From: Acidobacteriota bacterium
Lineage (GTDB): Bacteria; Acidobacteriota; Vicinamibacteria; Marinacidobacterales; Marinacidobacteraceae
DNA: 64,000 nucleotides
NCBI GenBank assembly: GCA_022822745.1
Contig: JAJEAO010000006.1
Span: 9,509 to 73,508 of the forward strand
Reading direction: 5' to 3'
Shown: positions 3,447 to 58,747 of the stretch, in pieces
Layout: the number at the start of each line of letters is the position of its first letter
How positions within the stretch are numbered: the first letter of the stretch is position 1
The notes under the pieces: model-generated
Seen by the model: the letters and a program-made list of their open reading frames with translations, nothing else
Told to the model about the DNA's origin: nothing
Databases searched by the model: none
Translations under genes and position numbers: made by a program

Positions 3447-3785
3447 CTCTCTTCTGCGACTTCGTCGGGGGCGTTGGCGGACAGGAACCTCGAGATCGAG
3501 CCGGGGCCGGAGGGGCGCCGGGCGGCTCACTCTCGATGGTACCCGGCCCGCCCCCGGTCACCGGTGCGCCCGGAGGAGCGACGGGCTCCGCCATCTCTCC
3601 CGGCAGGGGCCCGGCGCGGGCGGCGCGAACGAACCCCGCCTCCCGGAAATCGAACCTCGAAAGAGCGGTGCCTCACCGGAACGCGACGGAGCGCCGCCGG
3701 GGCCGCGAATCGCCGCGCTGGGGGGCGGCGCTCCCCGCCAGAGAACCGAGCGCGACGGATGGCCCCGTCCCTAGACTCCCGCCCC

Positions 3786-6700
3786 ATGACCAGCGCGCGG
3801 ACGGCCTTCCGGCAGGCGCTCTCCGAGCGGATCGTCGTCTTCGACGGCGCCGGCGGGACGATGCTGCAGTCGCTCCATCTCGACGAAGCCGGATTCCGCG
3901 GCGAGCGGCTCGCGGACCACCCGGAGCCGCTCTCCGGACTCCACGACGCGCTGTGCCTCACCCGCCCCGAACTCGTGGAACGGGTCCACCGCGACTACCT
4001 CGCCGCCGGCGCCGAAGCGCTCACCACGAACACGTTCAACGCGAACGCGGTCTCGCTGGCCGACTACGGCGCCTCGCACCTCGCCTTCGAGATGAACCGG
4101 GAGGGCGCCCGGGCGGCGCGGCGGGCCGTCGAAGCCTTCGCGCCGGACCGCCGGGTGTTCGTGCTCGGTTCGATCGGCCCGACGAACCGCACTCTCGGCA
4201 TCTCGCCCCGGGTCGAGGATCCCGGGTACCGCGCGGTCTCGTGGGAAGCGCTCCGCTCCGCCTACCTGGAGCAGGCGCGGGGGCTCCTCGCCGGGGGGGC
4301 CGACCTGCTGCTGGTCGAGACCTGCTTCGACACGCTGAACGCCAAGGCGGCGCTCGACGCCTGCCGGGAAGCGCTGGACGAGGTGGACGCGGGCTCCGGC
4401 CTGATCGTCTCGTTCACCGCGGTGGATCGAGGAGGACGGAACCTGACCGGCCAGGACTCCGAGGCCTTCTGGATCTCGGTGGCCCACGCCGGGGTCACCG
4501 CCGCCGGCGTGAACTGTTCCTTCGGGGCCGAGACGATGCGCCCGTTCGTGGAGCGGCTCGCCGCCTGCGCCCCGGTTCCGGTCGGAGCGGTCCCCAACGC
4601 GGGGCTCCCGAACGACCTCGGCGAGTACGACGAGACCCCGGCCACGACTGCCGAGGCCCTTGCCGAGCTCGCGGACAGCGGACTCCTGAACTTCACCGGC
4701 GGCTGCTGCGGCACGACGCCCGATCACATCGCCGCCGTCCGCGCCGCCGTCCGCGGAGCGGCGCCTCGGCGACTCCCGGAGCCTCGCGCCGGGCTCCGCC
4801 TCGCGGGGACCGATCCCCTGGTGCGGCCGGAGCGGGCGTTCCTCGTCGTCGGCGAGCGGACGAACGTCACCGGAAGCCGCCGATTCGCCCGGCTCATCCG
4901 CCGCCGGAAGTTCGAGGCCGCCGCCCGGGTGGCCCGCGGCCAGGTCCGCGGCGGCGCGAACCTCCTCGACGTGAACATGGACGCAGCGCTCCTGGACTCC
5001 GCCTCCCGCATGCGCCGCTTCCTCCGGTTTCTGGCGATGGAGCCCGACATCGCGCGCCTTCCGATCCTGGTGGACAGCTCGAAGCTGGAGGTGATCGAGA
5101 CCGGGCTCCGCTGCCTCCCGGGAAAAGGCGTCGTGAACTCGCTCTCGCTGAAGGACGGGGAGTCCGCGTTCCTCGAAGCCGCCCGGCGGGTGCGGCGCTA
5201 CGGGGCGGCGATCGTGGTGATGGCCTTCGACGAGGTCGGCCAGGCGGTGGACGCCGACCGCAAGACCGCCATCTGCCTCCGCGCCTACCGGCTCCTGACC
5301 GGCATCGACGTCCCTCCCGAGGACATCGTGTTCGATCCGAACGTCCTCGCGGTGGCCACCGGGATGGCGGAGCACGACCGATACGCGGTGGAGTTCCTCG
5401 AGGCCCTGCCCCGGATCGCGGCCGCCTGCCCCGGCGCCCTCCTCTCCGGCGGAATCTCGAACCTCTCGTTCGCCTTCCGCGGCCACGAGACGGTGCGGGG
5501 AGCGATGAACGCGGTGTTCCTGCACCACGCCATCGCCGCCGGACTCGACATGGCCATCGTGAACGCCGGGCGCCTGCCGGTCGTGGACGACATCCCGGCG
5601 GAGCTGCGGGAACGGGTGGAGGACGTGATCTTCGCGAGGCGGCCGGACGCCACCGCGCGGCTCGTGGCGCTCGCCTCCCGCACCGGTCGTCGCGCCGGCG
5701 CCCGGCGGGCGAAGGAGACCTGGCGCGGTCTCCCGGTGGGTGAGCGGCTCGCCCACGCCGTGATCCACGGCATCCTCGACCACGTCGGAGAGGACGCGAT
5801 CGAGGCCATCGGCGCGGAGGGCTCGGCGCTCTCCGTGATCGAGGGTCCGCTCATGGACGGGATGCGCGTCGTCGGAGACCGCTTCGGCGACGGGCGCATG
5901 TTTCTGCCCCAGGTCGTCAAGAGCGCCCGGGTGATGAAGCGCGCGGTGGCCCGGCTCCGTCCGCACATGGAGACCGGCGAGCGAGCCGCCGCCCGCCGGC
6001 CCCGGATCGTGCTGGCCACGGTCCGGGGGGACGTGCATGACATCGGCAAGAGCATCGTCGGCATCGTGCTCGCCTGCAGCGGATACGAAGTGGAGGATCT
6101 CGGCGTCATGGTCCCCGCCGACGGGATCCTCGCCGCGGCGGAAGCCGGCGACGCGGCTCTCGTCGGGCTCTCCGGGCTGATCACCCCGTCGCTCGACGAG
6201 ATGGAGCGGTTCGCGGTCGAAATGGAGCGCCGCGGCGACTCCCGACCGCTGCTGATCGGAGGCGCCACCACCTCGGCGCGGCACACGGCGCTCCGGATCG
6301 CTCCCCGCCGTTCCGGGCCGGTCGTCCACGTGCGCGACGCCTCCCGGGCGACCGGCGTGGCGCGGTCCCTCCTCGGGGCGGACCGCGAGAGCTACCTCGC
6401 CGCGGTGCGCGAGCGGCAGGCGCGGGAGCGGGGTCGAAGGGCCGGCCGGGGGCGCCGCCGGCTGCTCCCGCTCGAGGAGGCCCGCCGCCGGGCGCCGAGG
6501 TTCTCTCGGGCGAAGGACGTGCGCGCCAGCTTCCTCGGAGTCCGCCTCCTGCCCGACGTCCCCCTCCGGGAACTGCTCCCGTTCGTGGACTGGACCCCGT
6601 TCTTCCACGCCTGGCAGTTCCGGGGAACCTGGCCGGGGCTCCTCGATCACCCCGAGGCCGGACCCCCGGCGCGGGAGCTCCTCGAAGCCGCCCGCGCCCG

Positions 6701-7421
6701 CGCCGAGTCGCTGGCGGAGACGCGGGCGATCCGCGCCGCGGGGGCCTACGGCTTCTTCCCCGCGGCCCGCGAAGGCGACGACCTCCTCCTGTGGGAGGAC
6801 GGGGACGCCCGGGGCTCTCCGCGCTTCCGCATCCCCACGCTGCGGCAGCAGGAGGACCGCCCCGGCCCGCGTCTCGCCGCGGCGGATTTCGTGGCGCCGG
6901 CGAACGCGGACGGCCCGGAGGATGTGGTCGGGCTCTTCTGCGTCACCGCCGGGCTGGGCCTCCGCGCCGCGGTGGCGGCGGCCGAGCGCCGCGAGGACGA
7001 CTACGAGGCGCTCCTGCTCCGCTCGCTCGCCGACCGCCTCGCCGAAGCCTTCGCCGAGAGACTCCACCAGCGGGCGCGGCGCGATCTCGGCTACGGAGCG
7101 GCGGAGGATCTCTCCCCCCGGGAACTCCTCCGGGGCCGCTACCGCGGGATCCGCCCGGCCCCGGGCTACCCGGCGACGCCCGATCTCTCGATTCTGCAGC
7201 CGGTCTTCGAAGCGCTCGGCGCGGAGGCGGCGCTCGGGGTCCGCCTCACCGAGTCCTTCGCCATCGAGCCCGCAGCCTCGGTCGCCGGGCTCTACTTCGG
7301 GAGCGCCGAGGCCCGGTATTTCTCCGTGGGGAGGATCGGCCGCGACCAGCTCGAGGACTACGCCGGCCGGCGGCAGATCCCGATGGAGCGCGCCGAAGCG
7401 CTCCTCCGCCGCGTGCTCTGA
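3786..7421 (+). CDS. metH: Cobalamin-dependent methionine synthase
   Basis: Full four-module architecture at 1211 aa: homocysteine S-methyltransferase (IVVFDGAGGTMLQS), pterin-binding, B12-binding (GDVHDIGKSIVGIVL) and the AdoMet activation domain. The ATG at 3786 is in frame with the long ORF, whose 5' extension I reject. Confidence 0.95.
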   Translation: MTSARTAFRQALSERIVVFDGAGGTMLQSLHLDEAGFRGERLADHPEPLSGLHDALCLTRPELVERVHRDYLAAGAEALTTNTFNANAVSLADYGASHLAFEMNREGARAARRAVEAFAPDRRVFVLGSIGPTNRTLGISPRVEDPGYRAVSWEALRSAYLEQARGLLAGGADLLLVETCFDTLNAKAALDACREALDEVDAGSGLIVSFTAVDRGGRNLTGQDSEAFWISVAHAGVTAAGVNCSFGAETMRPFVERLAACAPVPVGAVPNAGLPNDLGEYDETPATTAEALAELADSGLLNFTGGCCGTTPDHIAAVRAAVRGAAPRRLPEPRAGLRLAGTDPLVRPERAFLVVGERTNVTGSRRFARLIRRRKFEAAARVARGQVRGGANLLDVNMDAALLDSASRMRRFLRFLAMEPDIARLPILVDSSKLEVIETGLRCLPGKGVVNSLSLKDGESAFLEAARRVRRYGAAIVVMAFDEVGQAVDADRKTAICLRAYRLLTGIDVPPEDIVFDPNVLAVATGMAEHDRYAVEFLEALPRIAAACPGALLSGGISNLSFAFRGHETVRGAMNAVFLHHAIAAGLDMAIVNAGRLPVVDDIPAELRERVEDVIFARRPDATARLVALASRTGRRAGARRAKETWRGLPVGERLAHAVIHGILDHVGEDAIEAIGAEGSALSVIEGPLMDGMRVVGDRFGDGRMFLPQVVKSARVMKRAVARLRPHMETGERAAARRPRIVLATVRGDVHDIGKSIVGIVLACSGYEVEDLGVMVPADGILAAAEAGDAALVGLSGLITPSLDEMERFAVEMERRGDSRPLLIGGATTSARHTALRIAPRRSGPVVHVRDASRATGVARSLLGADRESYLAAVRERQARERGRRAGRGRRRLLPLEEARRRAPRFSRAKDVRASFLGVRLLPDVPLRELLPFVDWTPFFHAWQFRGTWPGLLDHPEAGPPARELLEAARARAESLAETRAIRAAGAYGFFPAAREGDDLLLWEDGDARGSPRFRIPTLRQQEDRPGPRLAAADFVAPANADGPEDVVGLFCVTAGLGLRAAVAAAERREDDYEALLLRSLADRLAEAFAERLHQRARRDLGYGAAEDLSPRELLRGRYRGIRPAPGYPATPDLSILQPVFEALGAEAALGVRLTESFAIEPAASVAGLYFGSAEARYFSVGRIGRDQLEDYAGRRQIPMERAEALLRRVL

Positions 7422-7458
7422 ATCGGGAGTTCAGGACGCGCCGGTCAGGATCCGGGGT

Positions 7459-7890
7459 TCAGGACGCGCCGGTCGGGATCCGGTACTTCTCCACCGGCGC
7501 GCCGCCGCGGAGGTGGCTCTCGATGACCTCCTCGAGCGCCTCCGGGGTCATGTTCCGGTACCAGACGGCTTCCGGATAGACGACCGCCACCGGACCCTCG
7601 GCGCAGATCCGGAGGCAGTCCGCCTTCGTCCGCGCGACCGGACCCCGGGCGGGACCGCAGGCGAGGCCCAGCGCATCGAGACGCGCCTTCAGCAGGCGCC
7701 AGGAACGGGCGCCCGTCTCGGGATCGCAGCACTTCGGCTTCGAGGGGTCGGCGCAGAGGAAGATGTGCCGGCGGACGCCCGCGAGCCCGAGAGCCTCCGC
7801 CTTGCGGGCCGCGGCCGAGGGTTCGCCGGCAGCGGCCGCTCCCTTCCCGCGGCCGGCGGCTGGCGTCTTCTCGCGGCCGGCGGCTGGCAA
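7459..7890 (-). CDS. Thioredoxin-like [2Fe-2S] ferredoxin domain protein
   Basis: The C-terminal approx. 100 aa read VRRHIFLCADPSKPKCCDPETGARSWRLLKARLDALGLACGPARGPVARTKADCLRICAEGPVAVVYPEAVWYRNMTPEALEEVIE, matching the TRX-like Fd family. There is no in-frame ATG; I propose a TTG at 7890. The N-terminal low-complexity region contains a 2x24-nt tandem repeat. Confidence 0.5.
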   Translation of the reverse strand: MPAAGREKTPAAGRGKGAAAAGEPSAAARKAEALGLAGVRRHIFLCADPSKPKCCDPETGARSWRLLKARLDALGLACGPARGPVARTKADCLRICAEGPVAVVYPEAVWYRNMTPEALEEVIESHLRGGAPVEKYRIPTGAS

Positions 7891-7910: not shown

Positions 7911-8504
7911 TCACGCTCCGTTCGCGTCCCGCAGGATCCCCGCCGGACACGAGACGCCGGTCCGGACGATCCCGCAGTAGCCCCCCGGATTCTTCGCCAG
8001 GTACTGCTGGTGGTACTCCTCGGCGTAGTAGAACGGCTGTTCCCGGCGGATCTCGGTCGTGACCTCCGGGAACCCGGCGGCGGCGAAACGAACCCCGTAG
8101 GCCTCCTTCGCCGCGACCGCCGCCCGGAACTGGGCGTCGTCCGCCGGGTAGATCGTGGAGCGGTACTGCGTGCCCACATCGTTCCCCTGACGCATGCCCT
8201 GGGTCGGGTCGTGGTTCTCCCAGAACACCCGCAGCAGCTCGCCGAACGAAACCCGGTCCGGCCGGAACACGACCCGAACGACTTCGGCGTGCCCGGTCCG
8301 ACCGCTGCAGACTTCCCGGTAGGTCGGGTTCCGGGTGATTCCGCCCGCATACCCGACCGCGGTGCTGTACACCCCCGGCAGCTTCCAGAAGAGCCGTTCG
8401 GCGCCCCAGAAACACCCCATCCCGACGAGAGTCTCCGCCGTCCCCTCGGGCCACGGGGGGGTCAGCGGCGCGTCGAGCACGAAATGGCGGCGGGGCACCC
8501 GCAT
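7911..8504 (-). CDS. msrA: Peptide methionine sulfoxide reductase A
   Basis: 197 aa with [28 protein letters not shown] and EYHQQYL signatures. The ATG at 8502-8504 was located by counting back from the stop. Confidence 0.9.
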
Positions 8505-8705
8505 GGCTTTCACCCGGTGCGGCAGGGCGGTGGCCGGGGAGGGCAGCGTGGAGGGACGGGCGAAGGGAATCACGGCGGCCGGGCAGTCTATCCGGGGTCG
8601 GCGACGGCTCCTCCCGCCCGCGCGGACGCCGTTCGACGGGACCGTCCTCGCCGGCGCGCGCCGGCGCCCGGATCCGGCGCGCTCCCGGACGCCCAGTACA
8701 AGCGG

Positions 8706-8802
8706 CGGCGACGGCCAGGAGGAATCCCGGACCGCACCGGCGACAGCCAGGAGGAATCCCGTACCGCGCCGGCGACCGCCAGGGGAAATCCCCGGACCGT
8801 GC
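8706..8802. repeat. Three perfect-tandem copies of a 32-33 bp unit (cggcgacRgccaggRgaatcccSgaccgYRc) in the msrA/ALDH divergent intergenic region
   Basis: Read directly: copies at 8706-8737, 8738-8769 and 8770-8802, followed immediately by TATACT (8805-8810) and the GTG start of the ALDH gene at 8821. Confidence 0.85.
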
Positions 8803-8804
8803 CT

Positions 8805-8810
8805 ATACTC
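8805..8810 (+). promoter_or_regulatory. Candidate -10 element (TATACT) 10 nt upstream of the ALDH GTG start; possible leaderless or short-leader transcript
   Basis: This is the only AT-rich hexamer in a >70% GC intergenic region, positioned directly after the iteron array. Confidence 0.35.
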
Positions 8811-8820
8811 GCCCCCGCCA

Positions 8821-10197
8821 GTGGGAGAGAGCCCGGAACGAGCCGTCGCCCGCGCTCGACGGCTCGCATCGTCGGGCGCCCCCGCCTCCCGCGCGTTCCG
8901 GCGCCGCGCGCTCGGCTCGCTCCAGCGCCTCCTCGTCTCCAGGCGTTCGGCGTGGGAGGCGGCGCTCGCCGAGGATCTGGGCGTCCCCCCCTTCGAGGCG
9001 TGGGCGGCGCAGACGGGCGTGGTCCTCCAGGAAATCCGCCACGCCCGACGAAGGCTCCGGGGCTGGATGCGACCCGAGCGGGTCGGCTCTCCCCTCGCGC
9101 TCCTCCCGTCGCGGAGCCGGATCGAGCCCGCGCCGCTCGGGGTCGTGCTCGTCATCGCTCCCTGGAACTACCCGCTGCAGTTGAGCCTCGCCCCGGCGGT
9201 CGCGGCGCTGGCGGCGGGGAACACCGTCGTCCTGAAGCCCTCGGAGCACGCCCCGGCGACGGCGGCGCTCCTCGCCGAACTCCTCCCGGCGGCGCTCCCC
9301 GAGGGCCTCGTGGAAGTGGTTCCCGGAGGTCCGGATGTCGGGGCGGCCCTCGGCGGTTCCGGTGCGTTCGATCACATTCTCTTCACCGGCAGCCGCGGCG
9401 TGGGGGCGAGAGTGGCCGAGGCCGCCGGACGCACCCTGACCCCCGTCACCCTCGAGCTGGGAGGCAAGTGCCCAGTCCTCCTCGACAAGACTGCGAGCCT
9501 GCGGGTCGCGGCCCGGCGCATTGCCTGGGGAAAGTTCCTGAACGCCGGACAGACCTGCGTCGCCCCCGACTTCGCCCTCGTTCCGTCGAACCGCGCCGAG
9601 CGGTTCCACCGGGAGCTCGGCCGCGCCCTGGACCGGTTCTACGGACCCGACCCCGAGCAGAGCCCCGACTACGCCCGCATCGCGCACCGGGCGCACTTCG
9701 ACCGGCTCGCCCGGCTGCTCGAGGGCCTCCCGATCCGGCGCGGCGGAACCCGCGACCGGGAAACGCTCTACTTCGCGCCGACCGTGACCGGCCCCTGGCC
9801 CGACGGCCACGCCGCGGGCCGGGAGGAGATCTTCGGGCCCATTCTCCCGGTCCTTCCGTACGACACCCTCGATCAGGCGATCACCCTCGCCGCCGAACTG
9901 CCCCCTCCGCTCGCGCTCCACATCTTCACCCGTCGGCGACGGGTCGCGCGACGGGTCGCGGCGGCGGTGCGCTCCGGCGCCGTCCTCGTGAACGACGCCG
10001 TGCTCCACTGCGCGAACCCGGCGCTCCCGTTCGGCGGCGTCGGGGCGAGCGGGTATGGGGCGTACCACGGCGTCCACGGGTTCGACCGGCTCTCCCAGCC
10101 GCGCGCCTGGCTGACCTCCCTGCCCTGGTTCGACATCCCGCTCCGCTACCCGCCCTACCGGGGCAAACTGCCCATCCTCCGCCGGATCCTTCGTTGA
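8821..10197 (+). CDS. Class 3 (fatty/aromatic) aldehyde dehydrogenase
   Basis: 458 aa with LELGGKCP and [11 protein letters not shown] (catalytic Cys), plus [12 protein letters not shown]. The GTG at 8821 gives the class-3 N-terminus ([17 protein letters not shown]...). Its stop overlaps the start of the next gene (TGATG). Confidence 0.85.
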
Positions 10198-12614
10198 TGA
10201 CCTCGAACCCCGCACTCGCCCTCCTCGATCCGGTGTCCGGCCGGCCGCCGCTGAAGCCGCCGGAGGCCGCCCGCATCGCGGCGGAGATCTGGGGCCTCGA
10301 AGCGGACGCATCGCCGCTGCCGGGCGAGCGCGACGCGAACTTCCTCCTGACCTCCCGCTCGGGCGAGCGGTTCGTGCTCAAGGTCTCGGGCGCCGCCGAA
10401 GTCCCGGAGCGGGTCGAACTCCAGACCGCGATGCCGGCGCACATCCGGAAACGCGACCCCCGCCTCCGGACGCCGCGCGCCGTCCCCGCCCGAACCGGAT
10501 CCCCGGGCCCGAACGGGATCGCTGCATGCCGCATTCGGGGCCGAAGCCACGCGGCCCGGCTCCTCGTCCACCAGGACGGCGTGCCCCTCTCGGCCTTCCC
10601 TTCCCCCGCCCCGGCGATTCTCGATGCCGTCGGAAGTTTCGCGGGGCGGCTCCAGCGGACCCTCGCCGACTTCGATCATCCCGGCCTCCGCGCCCGGGAC
10701 CTGCCGTGGGCGCCGCAGCACGGGGCGCGGGTGATCTCCGCCGCAACGGGGCGAATCGAGGGCCCGGCGCGGCGAGCTCTCCACGCCCGGACGGCGGATT
10801 CCGTCCTGCCGCGGCTGCCGGCCCTGCTCGCTCTGCCGCAGGCCCCCCTCCACAACGACCTGAACGACGACAACCTGCTCCTCGCCGCCGGCGCGCCGGA
10901 GAGCGCGGGCCCCGAGGATCTGGCCGTTCTGGATTTCGGCGACGCCCTCGAGGGACCGGCGGTCGTCGAGGTCGCGACCGCGGCGCTCTATGCGGCGGGG
11001 GCCTCCGACGAGCCCCTGGCGGCGGCCGCCGCGGTCCTCGCCGGATTCGTCCGGGAGCGGCCGCTCTCGCGGGCGGAAGCGGGCGCCTTCCGCACCGCCC
11101 TCGCGCTCCGGGCGCTGGTGAGCGGGGGCATCGCCGCCATCCGACGGGCCGAGGTGCCGGGCGCCGCCGCCGACCCCTACCTGATGACCAGCGAGGCCGC
11201 CGTGTGGCGCGTGCTGGCGGCCCTCGATCGGGAATCGGCGCGCGAGTCCGGGGCCCGCTTCCTCGAGGCCGCCGGTCTCGCTCCTCCCGGCGCAGCTCGA
11301 GCCGGAGGCGACGACCCGAGGCGCCTCCTCGCCCGCCGGCGTCGCTGGTTCAGCCGCGCCCTGAGCATCTCCTACGACGATCCGATCCCGGTCGTCCGGG
11401 GCGCGGGCGCCCGGCTCCACGACCCCGACGGACGAAGCTACCTCGACATGGTGAACAACGTCTGCCATGTCGGGCACGCCCACCCCCGGGTCGCGGGGGC
11501 GATCGCCCGGCAGGCGGCGCGCGTCAACACGAACACGCGCTTCCTCTACCGGGAGCTCACCGATTACGCCGAGCGCCTCCTCGCCACGCTGCCGGACCCG
11601 CTCGAAGTCGTCTTCTTCACGAACTCGGGGAGCGAGTCGAACGACCTCGCGCTCCGGATCGCGAGAAACCGGCTGGGACGCTCCGCCACGCTCGTCTTCG
11701 ACGGCGCCTACCACGGCAACCTCACCTCCCTCATCGAGATCAGTCCCTACAAGCTGGATGGCCCCGGGGGCCGGCCCGGTCCGCCGTGGCTGCACCGTCT
11801 GCCGCTGCCCGACGGGTTCCGGGGACGATTCCGAGCGGAGGCGCCCGACTTTCCCGACGCGATGATCGCGGACGCTCGCCGGCGGGTGGCGGCCGCGGGC
11901 CCGGCCACTCTCGTCTCGGAGGCGATCCTCGGCTGCGGGGGGCAGGTCGTGCCTCCGCCGGGCTACCTGCGGGCGCTCTACCGGGCGGTCCGGGACGGGG
12001 GCGGGCTCATCGTCGCCGACGAGGTCCAGACCGGTTTCGGACGGGTGGGGCCCGCGTTCTGGGCCTTCGTCGAGGCGCAGCGCGGACCCGAAGCCGCCGA
12101 GCCCCCCGTGGTCCCGGACATCGTGACCCTGGGCAAACCCGCCGGAAACGGCCATCCGCTCGGGGCCGTGGTCACGACCCGCGAGCTCGCGAACTCGTTC
12201 GAGACCGGGATGGAGTACTTCAACACCTACGGCGGCAACCCGGTCTCCTGCGCCGCCGGACTCGCGGTCCTCGACGTCATCGAGAGCGAGGACCTGGCGG
12301 CCCACGCGGAACGGGTCGGCAACCGGCTGCTCGACGGCCTGAACCGGCTCGCGAACCGGTACCCTCTCATCGGAGAAGCGCGCGGGCGCGGTCTGTTCCT
12401 CGGCTTCGAGCTGGTGCGGGATCCCGAGACCCGCGCTCCCGCGACCGCGGAGGCGCGACGGCTGGTGAACCGCCTCCGCCAGGCGCGCATCCTGAACAGC
12501 ACCGACGGCCCCGACGCGAACGTCATCAAGATCAAGCCGCCGCTTCCGTTCTCGGCGGCGGACGCGGACCACTACCTGGAAGTCCTCGATCGAACGCTGA
12601 GTACCCCCGAATGA
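10197..12614 (+). CDS. Bifunctional fusion: N-terminal APH-fold (hydroxylysine-kinase/HYKK-like) amino-alcohol kinase plus C-terminal class-III aminotransferase-fold phospho-lyase (AGXT2L/ETNPPL-like)
   Basis: N-domain has [19 protein letters not shown] and VLDFGDA (APH/HYKK motifs). C-domain has [16 protein letters not shown]...[47 protein letters not shown] and [12 protein letters not shown], nearly colinear with eukaryotic phospho-lyases as I remember them. 805 aa; the ATG shares its A with the upstream TGA. Confidence 0.9.
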
Positions 12615-13312
12615 GCCCGACCCGGACCCTGCCCCGCTGGAGCCTGGTCGAGGTTCCGCCCCCCGGCGCGCATCGGACGACGATCGTCTGGCTCCACGGG
12701 CTCGGCGCCGACGGCCGGGACTTCGCTCCGGTCATCCCGGCGCTGCGGCTGCCGCGCCCCCTCGGGGTCCGGTTCCTGTTCCCGGAGGCGCCCATCCGTC
12801 CGGTCACCCTGAACGGCGGGATGGCGATGCGCGCCTGGTACGACATCGGCTCCATCACCGACTCCCGTGAACTGAACCGGGACCAGCTCGACGAGTCCGT
12901 CTCCGGGGTGCGGGCGCTCCTCGCCGCCGAACAAGAGCGCGGGATCCCGCCCGAGCGTCAGCTCCTCGTGGGCTTCTCGCAGGGGGGCGCGGTCGCGCTG
13001 AGCGCCGCCACCGCACGGGGGCCGGACGGATCCCCGCCTCCCCCGATCGGGGGGCTGGCTGCGCTCTCGACCTACCTGCCGCAGCCGGAGCGGCTCGTTC
13101 CCGGGGGGCGGGCGCCGATCTTCCTCGCCCACGGCTACTACGACGAAACGGTCCCGTTCCAGGCGGGAGCCAGGACCCGGGACGCCCTGGTGGCGGCCGG
13201 GTGGACCACGGACTTCCACGGCTACGCGATGGGCCACGCGGTGTGCGAAGAAGAGATCCGGGCGCTGGGCGCCTTCTTTCGGCAGGCGCTCGGCGGCGAG
13301 GCCGAATCGTGA
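12611..13312 (+). CDS. Alpha/beta-hydrolase carboxylesterase/phospholipase family (Abhydrolase_2-like)
   Basis: GFSQGG nucleophile elbow, downstream D and H (HGYAMGHAV), about 233 aa. ATGA overlap with the previous stop. Confidence 0.8.
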   Translation: MSPTRTLPRWSLVEVPPPGAHRTTIVWLHGLGADGRDFAPVIPALRLPRPLGVRFLFPEAPIRPVTLNGGMAMRAWYDIGSITDSRELNRDQLDESVSGVRALLAAEQERGIPPERQLLVGFSQGGAVALSAATARGPDGSPPPPIGGLAALSTYLPQPERLVPGGRAPIFLAHGYYDETVPFQAGARTRDALVAAGWTTDFHGYAMGHAVCEEEIRALGAFFRQALGGEAES

Positions 13313-25292: not shown

Positions 25293-25364
25293 TCCGAGGG
25301 GGCCGAAGAGAAGCGGCAAGGGGGCGAGATGGATCACGGCAGCGGAGATTCTACGGAGCCGGCG

Positions 25365-25540
25365 GAACCGATGCGCCGCGCGAGAGGAGCCCGGCCCCTG
25401 CCGGCGCGCCACGCGAGACGAGCCCGGCCCCTGCCGGCGCGTCGGGCCGATTCTCGCGGTAGCGGCCCTGCCCGGCACGGATGCCGGGCGCAACCGATGC
25501 GCCGCGCGAGAAGAGCCCGGCCCCTGCCGGCGCGTCGGGG
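25365..25540. repeat. Intergenic repeat cluster between tatA and ubiE: three copies of cgcgagaNgagcccggcccctgccggcgcg (each with a CCGGC-cccT-GCCGG mini-hairpin) plus a GCCCGGCAcggaTGCCGGGC hairpin
   Basis: Copies at about 25381-25410, 25413-25443 and 25504-25534. The longer unit aaccgatgcgccgcgcgagaRgagcccggcccctgccggcgcg occurs twice (25365-25410 and 25490-25535), and the hairpin is at 25468-25487. Confidence 0.8.
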
Positions 25541-54928: not shown

Positions 54929-55216
54929 ATGCGCGAGACCCGGAACACCATCGCCCTCACGGCGGTCATCATCGCGGCCGCCGGATTCCTCGGCCTGGGG
55001 CAGCGGGACATCCGCGCGGACCTCCGCGCCGCGACCGACGATCGCTCCGCGATCCGGGCGGAAGTCGCCGATGTCCGGGCGGAAGTCGCCGATGTCCGCG
55101 CCGAGCTCGCCGACCTTCGGGCCGACTTCCGGGCGCTGGCGCAGCGCGTCGCGCGGATCGAAGGCGCCCTGCCCTTCCTCGCCGAGCAACCGGGAGCCGG
55201 GGACGCCAGCCGCTAG
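54929..55216 (+). CDS. Small membrane-anchored coiled-coil protein with an internal heptad-like repeat
   Basis: N-terminal TM ([16 protein letters not shown]) then [26 protein letters not shown], encoded by a 2x21-nt tandem repeat (55055-55096). Confidence 0.4.
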
Positions 55217-55387
55217 CCGGTCGCAGTCCCGGGAAGGCTCACCCGCTCCCGGCATCCCCCACTGCCAGAGAGGGTGGCCCGTACAGAGGGTGGACCCGTA
55301 CTACAATCCGGTGACACGCGGGGAACATGAAACCGGGTTCGGACCCGCCGTTCCCGGATCCCTCCCCTGCCGAGCATCTCCCGCCCC

Positions 55388-57377: not shown

Positions 57378-58747
57378 CGGATCCGGTCCCGACGGGAGGA
57401 CTCGAGGCGTGGCGGGGGTTCCTCGCCGGACAGGGCGTCTCCGACGACGAGGCCGAGCCGAGAGTGGCCGCCGTGCGCGAAGAGGCGCAGACGCTCGAGG
57501 AGGCCGGTCTCACCGCGGAGGAGGCCTTCTCGGTCGCCATTCGCCGCCACGCCGACCGCGACCCGCTCGCCCGCCGCTTCGCCGGCCCCCCGAGACGCTG
57601 GCCGTCGTCCGGGACGCCCGGCGCTTCCACGGACGCGAGGCGCGCGATCCTCGCATCCACGGACCCGAGGCGCGCAATCCTGGCCGCCATCGGCCTCGCC
57701 GTCGCGGCGGCGGCGGCGGTGAAGCTCCCCGAACTCTTCGGGATCTCCTTCGACTCCCCGGCCGCCGACCGCTTCTACCTGCGGAACCTGAGCCTCCTGA
57801 TCCTGCCGTCACTGTCGGTGTGGGTGGCCTGGAGGCAGCGGTTTCCCCGGCCGCAGATCCTCGCCCTGCTCGGCGTCTTCCTCCTCGGCGCCGTTCTCAT
57901 CAACGGGATTCCGTTCGCCGCCGGCGGCTCCACCGAGACGCTCGCGGCGATCCATCTTCCGCTCGCCCTCTGGCTCGCGGTGGGACTCGTCGGGAGCGGA
58001 GCGGAGTCCGGGAACATCGTGGGGCGGCGGCTGCGCTTCGCGCGCTTCACCGGCGAGCTGCTGCTCACGCTGCCGCTCCTCGGCCTCGGCGGGCTCATTC
58101 TCGTCGGACTCACGATCGGTCTGTTCGGCCTCATCGGGCTCGAGGCGGAGGGCTTCGTGGAGCGCTGGATGCTGCCCGCCGGGGCCGCCGGCGCGATCGT
58201 GATCGCCGGCTTCCTCGCGGAGACGCGCCGCCGACTCACCGGACAGCTCGCGCCCGTGCTGATCCGGGTGTTCTCCCCGATGTTCGCTGGCGTGCTCGTC
58301 GTCTTCCTCGCCACGATGGCGTGGACCGGCGCCGGGCTGCAACCGGACCGGGAAGTCCTGATCGGGCTGGACCTGCTTCTCGTCCTGGTCGTCGGGCTCG
58401 TCCTGCTCCACGTGGCCGCCCGCGACGAGGAAGCGAAGCCCGGACTCTTCGATGGCGTCACCGCGGCCCTCGTCGTCCTCGCCCTGATCGTGGACGGGAT
58501 CGCGCTCGGCGCCATCGCCGGGCGAATCTCGGAATTCGGCCCCAGCCCGAACCGGGTCGCCGCCGTGGGCATCAACCTGATCCTGCTGGCGAACCTCGCC
58601 GGATCGGGGTGGCTCCTCCTCGGCTTCCTGCGCGAGAGGGCGGGATTCGACCGGCTGCGGCGCTGGCAGGCGGCGTTCCTGCCGATCTACGCCGGATGGG
58701 CGGCCTTCGTCATCGCCGTGCTCCCGCTGGTGTTCTCCTTCGCCTGA
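57374..58747 (+). CDS. Multi-pass integral membrane protein of unknown function with a soluble N-terminal domain
   Basis: About 10 TM segments after an approx. 100-aa cytoplasmic N-terminus. Contains a 2x30-nt in-frame tandem repeat (57626-57685) encoding ...STDARRAILASTDPRRAILA. ATGA overlap with cobB. Confidence 0.55.
   Translation: MTDPVPTGGLEAWRGFLAGQGVSDDEAEPRVAAVREEAQTLEEAGLTAEEAFSVAIRRHADRDPLARRFAGPPRRWPSSGTPGASTDARRAILASTDPRRAILAAIGLAVAAAAAVKLPELFGISFDSPAADRFYLRNLSLLILPSLSVWVAWRQRFPRPQILALLGVFLLGAVLINGIPFAAGGSTETLAAIHLPLALWLAVGLVGSGAESGNIVGRRLRFARFTGELLLTLPLLGLGGLILVGLTIGLFGLIGLEAEGFVERWMLPAGAAGAIVIAGFLAETRRRLTGQLAPVLIRVFSPMFAGVLVVFLATMAWTGAGLQPDREVLIGLDLLLVLVVGLVLLHVAARDEEAKPGLFDGVTAALVVLALIVDGIALGAIAGRISEFGPSPNRVAAVGINLILLANLAGSGWLLLGFLRERAGFDRLRRWQAAFLPIYAGWAAFVIAVLPLVFSFA

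Follow-up and report, generated by a model that had tools for sequence, protein, structure and literature searches.

Tandem repeats in the promoters of leaderless genes have been described in Mycobacterium tuberculosis, where VNTR3690 lies at lpdA, QUB15 at cysG and a further repeat in the dop promoter (PMC12817950), with the lpdA array ending 12 bp before the start codon (PMC12817950). Read for a leaderless gene such as lpdA, this distance would place the end of the array roughly at the 5' border of the -10 hexamer. A TANNNT signal near the start codon is a published signature of leaderless genes (PMC3160421). Literature searches gave nothing useful on repeat phase variation at divergent promoters or on a kinase/phospho-lyase fusion.

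In the window analysed here, a stretch of 64,000 nucleotides from an uncultured marine member of the Acidobacteriota (nearest named relative Ca. Marinacidobacterium, class Vicinamibacteria), a head-to-tail tandem array occupies positions 8706-8802, intergenic between msrA and an aldehyde dehydrogenase (ALDH) gene. The array is probably a minisatellite of recent, lineage-specific origin whose copy number varies (a promoter-proximal VNTR), remodelled by slippage or unequal recombination. The features of the locus are:

7911..8573, minus strand: msrA (220 aa), GTG start at 8573; Pfam PMSR, E=1e-59; gene call of 220 aa
8585..8590, minus strand: TAGACT, -10-like hexamer of the putative divergent promoter of msrA, separated from its GTG by 11 nt
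8591..8705, no strand: unique left part of the spacer, 115 nt, lineage-specific and absent from relatives
8706..8737, no strand: repeat unit 1, 32 nt, CGGCGACGGCCAGGAGGAATCCCGGACCGCAC; position 8 is G or C among strains
8738..8769, no strand: repeat unit 2, 32 nt; 29/32 (91%) identical to unit 1
8770..8802, no strand: repeat unit 3, 33 nt, the promoter-nearest unit; core altered to CCAGGGGAAATCCCC
8804..8809, plus strand: TATACT, -10-like hexamer of the ALDH operon; putative promoter element
8821..10197, plus strand: aldehyde dehydrogenase (458 aa), GTG start; Pfam Aldedh, E=1e-84; the gene call of the source assembly agrees
10197..12614, plus strand: APH-kinase/class-III aminotransferase fusion (Pfam); operon gene
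12611..13312, plus strand: Abhydrolase_2 hydrolase (Pfam); operon gene

The original prediction had placed three head-to-tail units at this site, which is borne out, and had called them exact, which they are not: besides the difference in length, unit 3 departs from unit 1 by five mismatches and one inserted base (27/33 columns, about 82% identity; 69% ungapped). Unit 2 is polymorphic among strains at unit positions 8 (A/C) and 25 (T/G), and unit 3 is invariant in 8/8 strain contigs. The TRF score of the array, 137, is the maximum for the window and lies beyond chance, since 30 first-order-Markov shuffles (periods of at least 16) reached no more than 75. Seven distinct tandem arrays in the window score at least 80, versus none in the shuffles, and short tandem duplications are a general tendency of the genome. 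The unit taken whole is non-palindromic, as had been said, but a short palindrome forms a core within it, reading GGAATCC in copies 1 and 2 and GGGGAAATCCCC (10/12) in copy 3.

Unit 3 spans the DNA just upstream of the ALDH -10-like box through the expected -35 position, and its terminal bases, GTGCC, are the sequence preceding TATACT in array-free relatives. A single nucleotide separates the array (end at 8802/8803) from TATACT, and 11 nt (cgcccccgcca, 8810-8820) separate TATACT from the GTG at 8821, where gaps of 2 and 10 nt had been counted; nor is TATACT the sole AT-rich hexamer of the intergenic region, its minus strand also carrying TAGACT. The GTG start proposed for ALDH is upheld by the Pfam match, by the gene call and by conservation of both the GTG and the N-terminus in relatives, and the GC3 frame fits a coding gene with coding onset near 8821. 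The N-terminal extension of msrA (VIP.ARP.TLP.PATALP) is conserved with the relative L083 through synonymous changes. The gene starts of metH, msrA and ALDH are called inconsistently.

No Shine-Dalgarno sequence was found upstream of the ALDH GTG, and a sigma-70 consensus scan detected no full promoter having both -35 and -10 elements; the -10 box by itself appears to drive promoters here. The arrangement TATACT-N9-11-GTG is kept in all six relatives examined (L083, L084, L085, L087, L088 and L001; 63-85% ALDH identity), and 9 of the 19 -10-like hexamers in the window, TATACT among them, sit 5-11 nt before a gene start, where 1.2 would be expected (P about 1e-6). Because the TATACT geometry is conserved and the pairing of box and start is enriched across the window, a leaderless or near-leaderless ALDH promoter, as first suggested, can be inferred with good support. 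As the 9-11-nt spacing exceeds the ~6 nt expected of a strictly leaderless gene, a transcript leader of 2-5 nt is likely. Further comparators for TANNNT-type leaderless genes are reportedly provided by GeneMarkS-2 and Deinococcus-Thermus work.

The interval between the two boxes measures 213 nt (8591-8803) in the window, whereas relatives at 85, 82, 75, 73 and 71% ALDH identity have 31, 21, 36, 11 and 57 nt, respectively, and no repeat. The same five relatives keep the msrA<>ALDH-kinase/aminotransferase-hydrolase synteny, with the order of the operon genes (ALDH followed by the fusion and the hydrolase at 10197..13312) repeated, and both back-to-back -10 boxes, the msrA box (agtcta) being conserved in L083, L084, L085, L087 and L088. 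None of these, nor L001, carries the array. The inter-box sequence is unrelated in L084, L085, L087 and L088, and a partial single copy exists only in L083, where a lone unit-like sequence, CAGGAGGA...TCCCGGtgccTATACT, stands at the place of the array and is a plausible seed for it. The 115-nt left part of the spacer has no other copy in the window or the loci compared, and its similarity to the array is not significant (p=0.08). On this comparison the array is lineage-specific, of evidently recent origin and not conserved.

These observations bear directly on the proposal, made originally, that the array is an iterated transcription-factor-binding site governing the operon. Each unit would then be a putative site, bound by a monomer or in tandem; because the 32-bp period approximates three helical turns, the sites would share one helical face, and the promoter-nearest unit, overlapping the -35 position, would activate or repress the ALDH promoter. 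The 16-nt core GCCAGGAGGAATCCCG is constant across the five distinct distal-unit variants seen, all five variable positions falling in the other 16 nt, and together with the palindromic core, the helical period and the one related sequence at the same place in L083 it speaks for binding; it is the promoter-nearest unit, however, which would matter most, that has the most altered core. The array is missing from 5/5 relatives at 71-85% ALDH identity, and the four with unrelated inter-box DNA possess the same operon. Among the 10 flanking genes scanned with Pfam, no DNA-binding domain or regulator gene was found (neighbours include msrA, ALDH, the kinase/aminotransferase fusion, the hydrolase, an epimerase, a redoxin and metH), although regulators can be encoded elsewhere. 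The search for other copies of the unit that had been advised returned none beyond chance in the 64-kb window or in the collections scanned, and a tandem pair of cores was matched once in metagenomes, by an unrelated sequence. A regulator-binding array is, on this evidence, improbable. The invariant core would still be compatible with constraint and counts, weakly given that the units are non-independent, against a neutral reading, as does the period close to three helical turns.

Variation in copy number, which the original prediction had considered plausible and advised looking for in related strains, is seen. The strain set consists of eight near-identical contigs forming one ALDH cluster at an identity of at least 90%, with DNA differing at 19 of 2380 aligned sites; seven contigs have three units and the eighth, L093, has four, the extra unit sitting after unit 2. 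The population is present in samples SRR8304783, SRR8304784, SRR8304786, SRR16351688, SRR16351689 and SRR22586460 and in those underlying ERZ23491076 and ERZ23491617. In L094 and L095, unit 2 reads as a chimera of units 1 and 2. The 98-nt array has three variable sites and the coding sequence, over about 2160 nt, has 14, such that SNP density is higher in the array than in its flanks, and L093 differs from L095 by two SNPs and one unit inside the array, with only one differing site in the flanks.

The four-unit variant was assembled from the short reads of a mixed population, which counts against the VNTR reading, and assembly of this kind could in principle have generated the repeat, or else the difference in copy number: every sequence is a metagenome assembly, the Logan contigs derive from a k-mer graph, and the sample series of L093 holds several array haplotypes. 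Such an artefact is nonetheless very improbable, as eight contigs, drawn from at least three sample series and assembled by two pipelines, show the three-unit array in identical or nearly identical form, and the differences between units make every 31-mer unique. In L093, where the extra unit joins its neighbour (CGC at the end of one unit, then a unit bearing C8, AGGAGG and T25), there are k-mers absent from all three-unit haplotypes seen, so that a real molecule must carry them.

The same variation could be that of a contingency locus, in which selection keeps the array and copy number tunes expression of the ALDH operon and/or msrA, either by altering promoter strength or by altering the coupling of the two divergent promoters, as has been proposed for the promoter tandem repeats of M. 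tuberculosis (PMC12817950). Copy number differs among near-identical strains of one sample series, in an array that is more variable than its flanks and directly abuts a -10 box. Only one variant appears in eight contigs, however; the repeat unit lacks a -10-like hexamer, meaning that extra units add no promoters, and all other relatives manage on 11-57 nt and no array at all. Selected tuning is accordingly doubtful, though it keeps an appreciable minor share of the probability.

Several further identities were rejected. Nothing marks the site as an iteron array or replication origin, since an initiator gene, an AT-rich unwinding element and a skew switch are all lacking: positions 8400-9100 are GC-rich throughout, with AT-rich tracts only at the two hexamers, GC content is 0.70-0.76 in 2-kb windows and the cumulative GC skew shows no turn around 8.7 kb. 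A structured RNA or riboswitch leader was set aside with only a chance-level miRNA match in Rfam and an RNA fold z-score of 0.03. Coding repeats, an N-terminal extension of ALDH (in-frame ORF from 8335) and an antisense ORF (8588-8869) were dismissed on the position of the GC3 onset, on the period of 32/33 nt and on the +32-nt variant; no ORF runs through the array, as the period is not a multiple of three and the +32-nt variant would cause a frameshift. A mobile element, MITE or MIRU-type origin was set aside because the unit and the 213-nt spacer are single-copy in the window and 96 loci, and neither matched viral contigs or plasmids. A single metagenome scan for arrays of the core returned one unrelated low-GC contig holding the core twice, apparently within a coding region. 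Older, decayed units at 8593-8705, suspected by eye from the resemblance of CCCGGACGC and CCCAGTACAAGCGG to the 3' end of the unit, gave p=0.08 in a local-alignment shuffle, and the 18-bp perfect palindrome CGCCGGCGCGCGCCGGCG (8649-8666), considered as an operator, belongs to a class occurring at chance rate (7 observed versus 2-16 in shuffles).

Under the preferred reading, that of a promoter-proximal VNTR, the array would have arisen, and would still be changing, through slipped-strand mispairing of its 32-bp units or unequal recombination among them, in the spacer of two divergent, -10-driven and putatively leaderless or near-leaderless promoters, those of msrA and the ALDH operon. The most likely effects of the array would be passive. 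Together with the 115 nt of unique inserted DNA it would have widened the separation of the boxes from 11-57 nt to 213 nt; two RNA polymerase footprints would have to overlap at the shorter distances, and independent occupancy would become possible at 213 nt. The sequence on the upstream side of the -10 box, with the few ancestral bases (GTGCC) adjoining it, would come from the promoter-nearest unit. Were a unit gained or lost, only upstream DNA would move, by ~three helical turns; neither the -10 box nor the start codon nor the frame would change, and such events would be tolerated for this reason.

Two further direct repeats in the window end, like the array, precisely at a -10 box. Ends of this kind, which a purely neutral model does not predict, count against a neutral reading, and their presence at two additional promoters is in keeping with a contingency locus. 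When repeats abutting -10 boxes were sought under strict ungapped conditions, no case emerged; a gapped, end-anchored test gave 2 of 19 boxes. It is an unlikely generalisation that promoters of the lineage repeatedly have this design, with repeats that run up to the -10 hexamer and end there (ALDH, tatA and an HMGL-like gene in the window). Such repeats may arise because mutation is concentrated at the upstream boundary of the promoter or open complex; alternatively, they may be selected, copy-number-tunable upstream modules by which promoter strength is set and overlapping divergent leaderless promoters are uncoupled. Their position echoes that of VNTR3690 in M. tuberculosis. The exact protein of the tatA repeat locus is carried only by the window's own contig.

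As one more intergenic VNTR, the array matters little so far. The relatives and the window together do supply a natural series for one divergent promoter pair, with 11, 21, 31, 36, 57 and 213 nt between the -10 boxes, which could be used for the study of promoter interference. Sequence-level evidence also points to wide use of -10-adjacent, leaderless or near-leaderless starts in this lineage, which would affect the annotation of gene starts in such MAGs.

Among known systems, the iterons of replication origins are likewise tandem, directly repeated and non-palindromic, but they have units of about 17-22 bp as opposed to 32 bp, and the present array, absent from relatives, lies in a chromosomal housekeeping context with no initiator gene, AT-rich unwinding element or DnaA-box cluster. 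Direct-repeat operators of the OmpR/PhoB or AraC type resemble it in lying upstream of and overlapping the -35 position and in being phased on one face of the helix; unlike them, the array is unconserved in orthologous promoters, has no nearby cognate regulator and no other sites, and repeats with a period of 32 bp rather than 10-21 bp. The putative promoter shares with TANNNT-led leaderless genes of high-GC bacteria a box near the start, the lack of a Shine-Dalgarno sequence and of a recognisable -35 element, and enrichment of the signal (Zheng et al. 2011, PMC3160421), although the box ends 9-11 nt before the ALDH and msrA starts, and 5-11 nt before starts window-wide, as compared with ~6 nt in strictly leaderless genes. 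The M. tuberculosis promoter VNTRs differ from the array in their units of 54-58 bp, versus 32-33 bp here in only the three to four copies seen; the present unit, moreover, has no -10 element, such that its copies do not multiply promoters, and its host is an uncultured marine acidobacterium. Both nevertheless occur in high-GC genomes as imperfect head-to-tail units of tens of base pairs in an intergenic promoter region, directly upstream of a leaderless (here putatively so) gene, with close strains differing in copy number and with strand slippage or recombination as the attributed cause, making the array a possible parallel, in an unrelated phylum, to the copy-variable promoter repeats of M. 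tuberculosis.

The repeat between msrA and the aldehyde dehydrogenase (ALDH) operon is most likely a young, lineage-specific, promoter-proximal VNTR. Its units lie head to tail and are imperfect, units 1 and 2 being identical at 29/32 positions, while unit 3, compared with unit 1, has five substitutions and an extra base. With a Tandem Repeats Finder score of 137, the array ranks top in the window and beats all 30 shuffles preserving first-order composition (maximum 75, periods ≥16), and is therefore a real repeat, as originally predicted; the units are not exact copies, however, and the predicted distances were slightly off, the array ending 1 nt before TATACT, itself 11 nt from the GTG.

Features of the array and its surroundings
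Array 8706–8802, unit 1 (first): 32 nt, CGGCGACGGCCAGGAGGAATCCCGGACCGCAC
Array 8706–8802, unit 2 (middle): 32 nt, CGGCGACAGCCAGGAGGAATCCCGTACCGCGC
Array 8706–8802, unit 3 (last, promoter-nearest): 33 nt, CGGCGACCGCCAGGGGAAATCCCCGGACCGTGC
8804–8809, plus strand: TATACT, -10-like box of ALDH, 1 nt after the array end and 11 nt before GTG 8821
8585–8590 (plus-strand coordinates), minus strand: TAGACT, -10-like box of msrA, 11 nt before the msrA GTG, with the same geometry as the ALDH side
Start GTG 8821, plus strand: ALDH, 458 aa; GC3 periodicity, Pfam (Aldedh, E=1e-84) and the source-assembly gene call concur
10197–12614, plus strand: APH-kinase/class-III aminotransferase fusion (Pfam), stop/start codons overlapping in the operon
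12611–13312, plus strand: Abhydrolase_2 hydrolase (Pfam), stop/start codons overlapping in the operon
Start GTG 8573, minus strand: msrA (Pfam PMSR), divergent from ALDH, 220 aa in the source assembly

The window, at 73% G+C, belongs to a metagenome scaffold of 139 kb (ENA ERZ23491076, KELL22-1 scaffold_208). An msrA start at ATG 8504 was rejected in favour of GTG 8573, the resulting 23-codon N-terminal extension being kept through synonymous changes relative to the 85% relative, L083. The kinase/aminotransferase fusion resembles hydroxylysine or ethanolamine kinase and phospho-lyase pairs, whose aldehyde product would suit ALDH.

The closest GTDB species-level genome, Ca. Marinacidobacterium (Acidobacteriota, Vicinamibacteria), has an ALDH of only 63% identity; closer metagenomic relatives were picked by protein search and their loci retrieved.

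Inter-box spacing (nt between 'agtcta' and 'tatact') and array content in the window and relatives, with ALDH identity and source
Window (ENA): 213 nt, array of 3 units
L083 (85%, ENA): 31 nt, no array
L084 (82%, Logan): 21 nt, no array
L085 (75%, Tara): 36 nt, no array
L087 (73%, ENA/NCBI): 11 nt, no array
L088 (71%, ENA): 57 nt, no array

In all five tabled relatives msrA is divergent from ALDH and an aminotransferase-domain gene lies next downstream, with the full metH...msrA<>ALDH-kinase/aminotransferase order kept in four; in the exception, L088, the second gene (4524–7524) encodes a 1060-aa protein in which the aminotransferase domain (Aminotran_3) is paired instead with a Peptidase_M23 match. 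The hydrolase gene follows wherever the contig extends far enough (L083, L085, L087). Both -10 boxes and a TATACT-N9-11-GTG motif are kept in 5/5 relatives (back-to-back boxes at L083 2949–2990, L084 588–620, upstream of 3001 in L085 and L087, and upstream of 3152 in L088), and TATACT-N10-GTG is present in L001 (63% ALDH identity). The array is absent from all six loci, and the sequence between the boxes is unconserved among the five. GTGCC at the end of unit 3 is ancestral, preceding TATACT in relatives, and a plausible seed for the array is ccggCAGGAGGAcgccacgcTCCCGGtgccTATACT, one unit-like stretch present at the same place in L083 only. Three of the relatives' spacings (11, 21 and 31 nt) form a series with steps of exactly 10 bp, roughly one turn of the helix. 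Two sequences, CCCGGGAAAATTCCG at 2975–2995 of L088 (between msrA and the -10 boxes) and GGAAACGGCTTCC in the inter-box spacer of L085, bear a loose likeness to the unit core GGAATCC / GGGGAAATCCCC, which may be coincidence.

The original prediction of a possibly leaderless mRNA is upheld by the conservation of this box-to-start motif, by the absence of a Shine-Dalgarno sequence before the ALDH GTG, and by the distribution of boxes across the window. In high-GC bacteria, TANNNT close to the start codon has been described as the signature of leaderless genes (PMC3160421). Of 19 -10-like boxes (TAnnnT with ≥4/6 matches to TATAAT, both strands), nine lie 5–11 nt upstream of a start codon that begins a long ORF whose frame fits GC3 (metH 3786, 3530-, msrA 8573-, ALDH 8821, 24078-, tatA 25337-, 38635, 54929 and 59259), against 1.2 expected (background rate for arbitrary positions 6.5%; P ~1e-6), and no -35/-10 pair emerged from a scan for the sigma-70 consensus. 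Leaderless or near-leaderless starts thus seem widespread in the lineage. Since the 9–11 nt spacing in ALDH and its orthologues exceeds the ~6 nt expected where there is strictly no leader, the ALDH mRNA would likely have a leader of 2–5 nt. Gene callers conflict with box-supported starts in places, metH being called at 3759 rather than at the box-supported ATG 3786.

Copy-number variation, a further suggestion of the original prediction, was found among near-identical strains. Within the window ALDH cluster at ≥90% identity (eight contigs, at least three sample series, two assembly pipelines), seven contigs carry three units and in L093 (Logan SRR8304784) there are four, the additional one being CGGCGACCGCCAGGAGGAATCCCGTACCGCGG; junction k-mers of this fourth unit are absent from every three-unit haplotype seen, which argues for the four-unit assembly reflecting a real molecule. 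Unit 2 of L094 and L095 looks like a mosaic of units 1 and 2, and the promoter-nearest unit is identical in 8/8 contigs. Variable sites number 19 in 2380 aligned bases: three in the 98-nt array, two in the 115-nt unique spacer and 14 in ~2160 coding nt. Between L093 and L095, the differences are two substitutions and one whole unit within the array, and one site outside it. The array behaves as a slippage- or recombination-prone minisatellite. Six independent Logan contigs (L082, L091–L095) start at the same base within msrA (fragment called 2–376), which suggests a consistent assembly break, for example where a site varies between strains or a repeat lies just past this point.

Such units could instead be iterated binding sites for a regulator, as originally predicted: none of the five distal-unit variants alters the 16-nt core GCCAGGAGGAATCCCG, all five variable positions lying outside it, the unit core holds a small palindrome, and the period keeps sites on the same helix face. 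These points weigh little, given the youth and non-independence of the units, and the reading is not favoured: orthologous promoters show no conservation of the array, no transcription-factor gene was found among the ten flanking genes scanned, the core is most altered in the promoter-nearest unit, and the 32-mer does not recur beyond the array in the window or the other loci scanned. With no second copy of unit or spacer there, and no match in viral contigs or plasmids, a dispersed element was also ruled out; a metagenome search with a tandem pair of cores returned one match, in an unrelated low-GC contig. A coding repeat was rejected (the period is not divisible by 3, and in the +32-nt variant any ORF would be thrown out of frame), as were a structured RNA (fold z-score 0.03; nothing from Rfam) and a replication origin (no initiator gene, AT-rich tract or skew switch found). 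In its unique part, the inserted spacer holds an 18-bp perfect palindrome, CGCCGGCGCGCGCCGGCG (8649–8666), and a 10-bp palindrome, CCGGATCCGG (8670–8679); palindromes ≥16 bp occur in the window at chance rate (7 observed; shuffles 2–16).

The favoured promoter-proximal VNTR would occupy the only freely variable stretch of the region, between two presumably essential -10 boxes whose promoters appear to lack a recognisable -35 element. Strain variation points to slipped-strand mispairing or unequal recombination as the way in which units are gained, lost and mixed. Because a unit corresponds to roughly three turns of the helix and the array stops just short of the -10 hexamer, changes in copy number would spare core promoter, start codon and frame, and so be tolerated. 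In relatives, with boxes only 11–57 nt apart, two polymerase footprints must overlap and the promoters would compete for the same DNA; in the window lineage, 213 nt would probably allow independent occupancy. This is the only architectural effect to emerge directly from comparing the loci.

Two further direct repeats in the window end at a -10-like box.

Other repeats in the window
25353–25348, minus strand: TAGAAT, -10-like box of tatA, 10 nt before tatA GTG 25337
55267–55307 region: 2 x 17–18-nt direct repeat AGAG(AG)GGTGG(A)CCCGTAC, directly abutting TACAAT 55302–55307
2082–2174, 7424–7483, 7843–7888, 55053–55125 and 57622–57681: other tandem repeats

Upstream of tatA-tatC (25338–25540, minus) lie three copies of GCGCCGGCAGGGGCCGGGCTC.TCTCGCG.GGC, two in tandem (25440–25408, 33 nt, and 25407–25353), the proximal ending at the first T of TAGAAT; the third (25533–25477, 55–57 nt), 126 nt further upstream, matches the box-proximal copy. 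This distal copy is in or adjoins the 5' end of a divergent UbiE-like methyltransferase gene (ATG 25481). TACAAT lies ~80 nt upstream of GTG 55388 of an HMGL-like/homocitrate-synthase-like gene, and its promoter would yield a leadered transcript, unlike the other boxed promoters noted. In a gapped, end-anchored test, repeats end at 2/19 boxes (tatA, HMGL-like; P=0.018), and the ALDH array, owing to divergence at its proximal end, gets no further than the 95th percentile; a strict ungapped test gives 0. Repeats stopping at -10 boxes are thus a suggestive, not established, regularity of the window. Seven distinct tandem repeats (period ≥16, TRF score ≥80) occur in the window and none in shuffles, and the genome as a whole seems liable to short tandem duplications. 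Several fall within genes: a CarboxypepD_reg-domain protein has 3 x 30 nt close to its N-terminus, the 163-aa ORF downstream of msrA has a 24-nt repeat, and other ORFs carry repeats of 21 nt and 30 nt; a 28 nt x 2.1 repeat lies at the convergent metH/ORF junction.

Promoter-proximal VNTRs are a kind already known, to which the array adds a new example. Its closest known match is a set of tandem repeats of variable copy number in M. tuberculosis, each situated directly upstream of a leaderless promoter: VNTR3690, whose 58-bp units stop 12 bp short of lpdA, QUB15 at cysG, and the repeat at the dop promoter (PMC12817950). The likeness lies in variable copy number and in position next to a putatively leaderless promoter, whereas the present array has shorter units, which do not contain a -10 element, and belongs to a different phylum.
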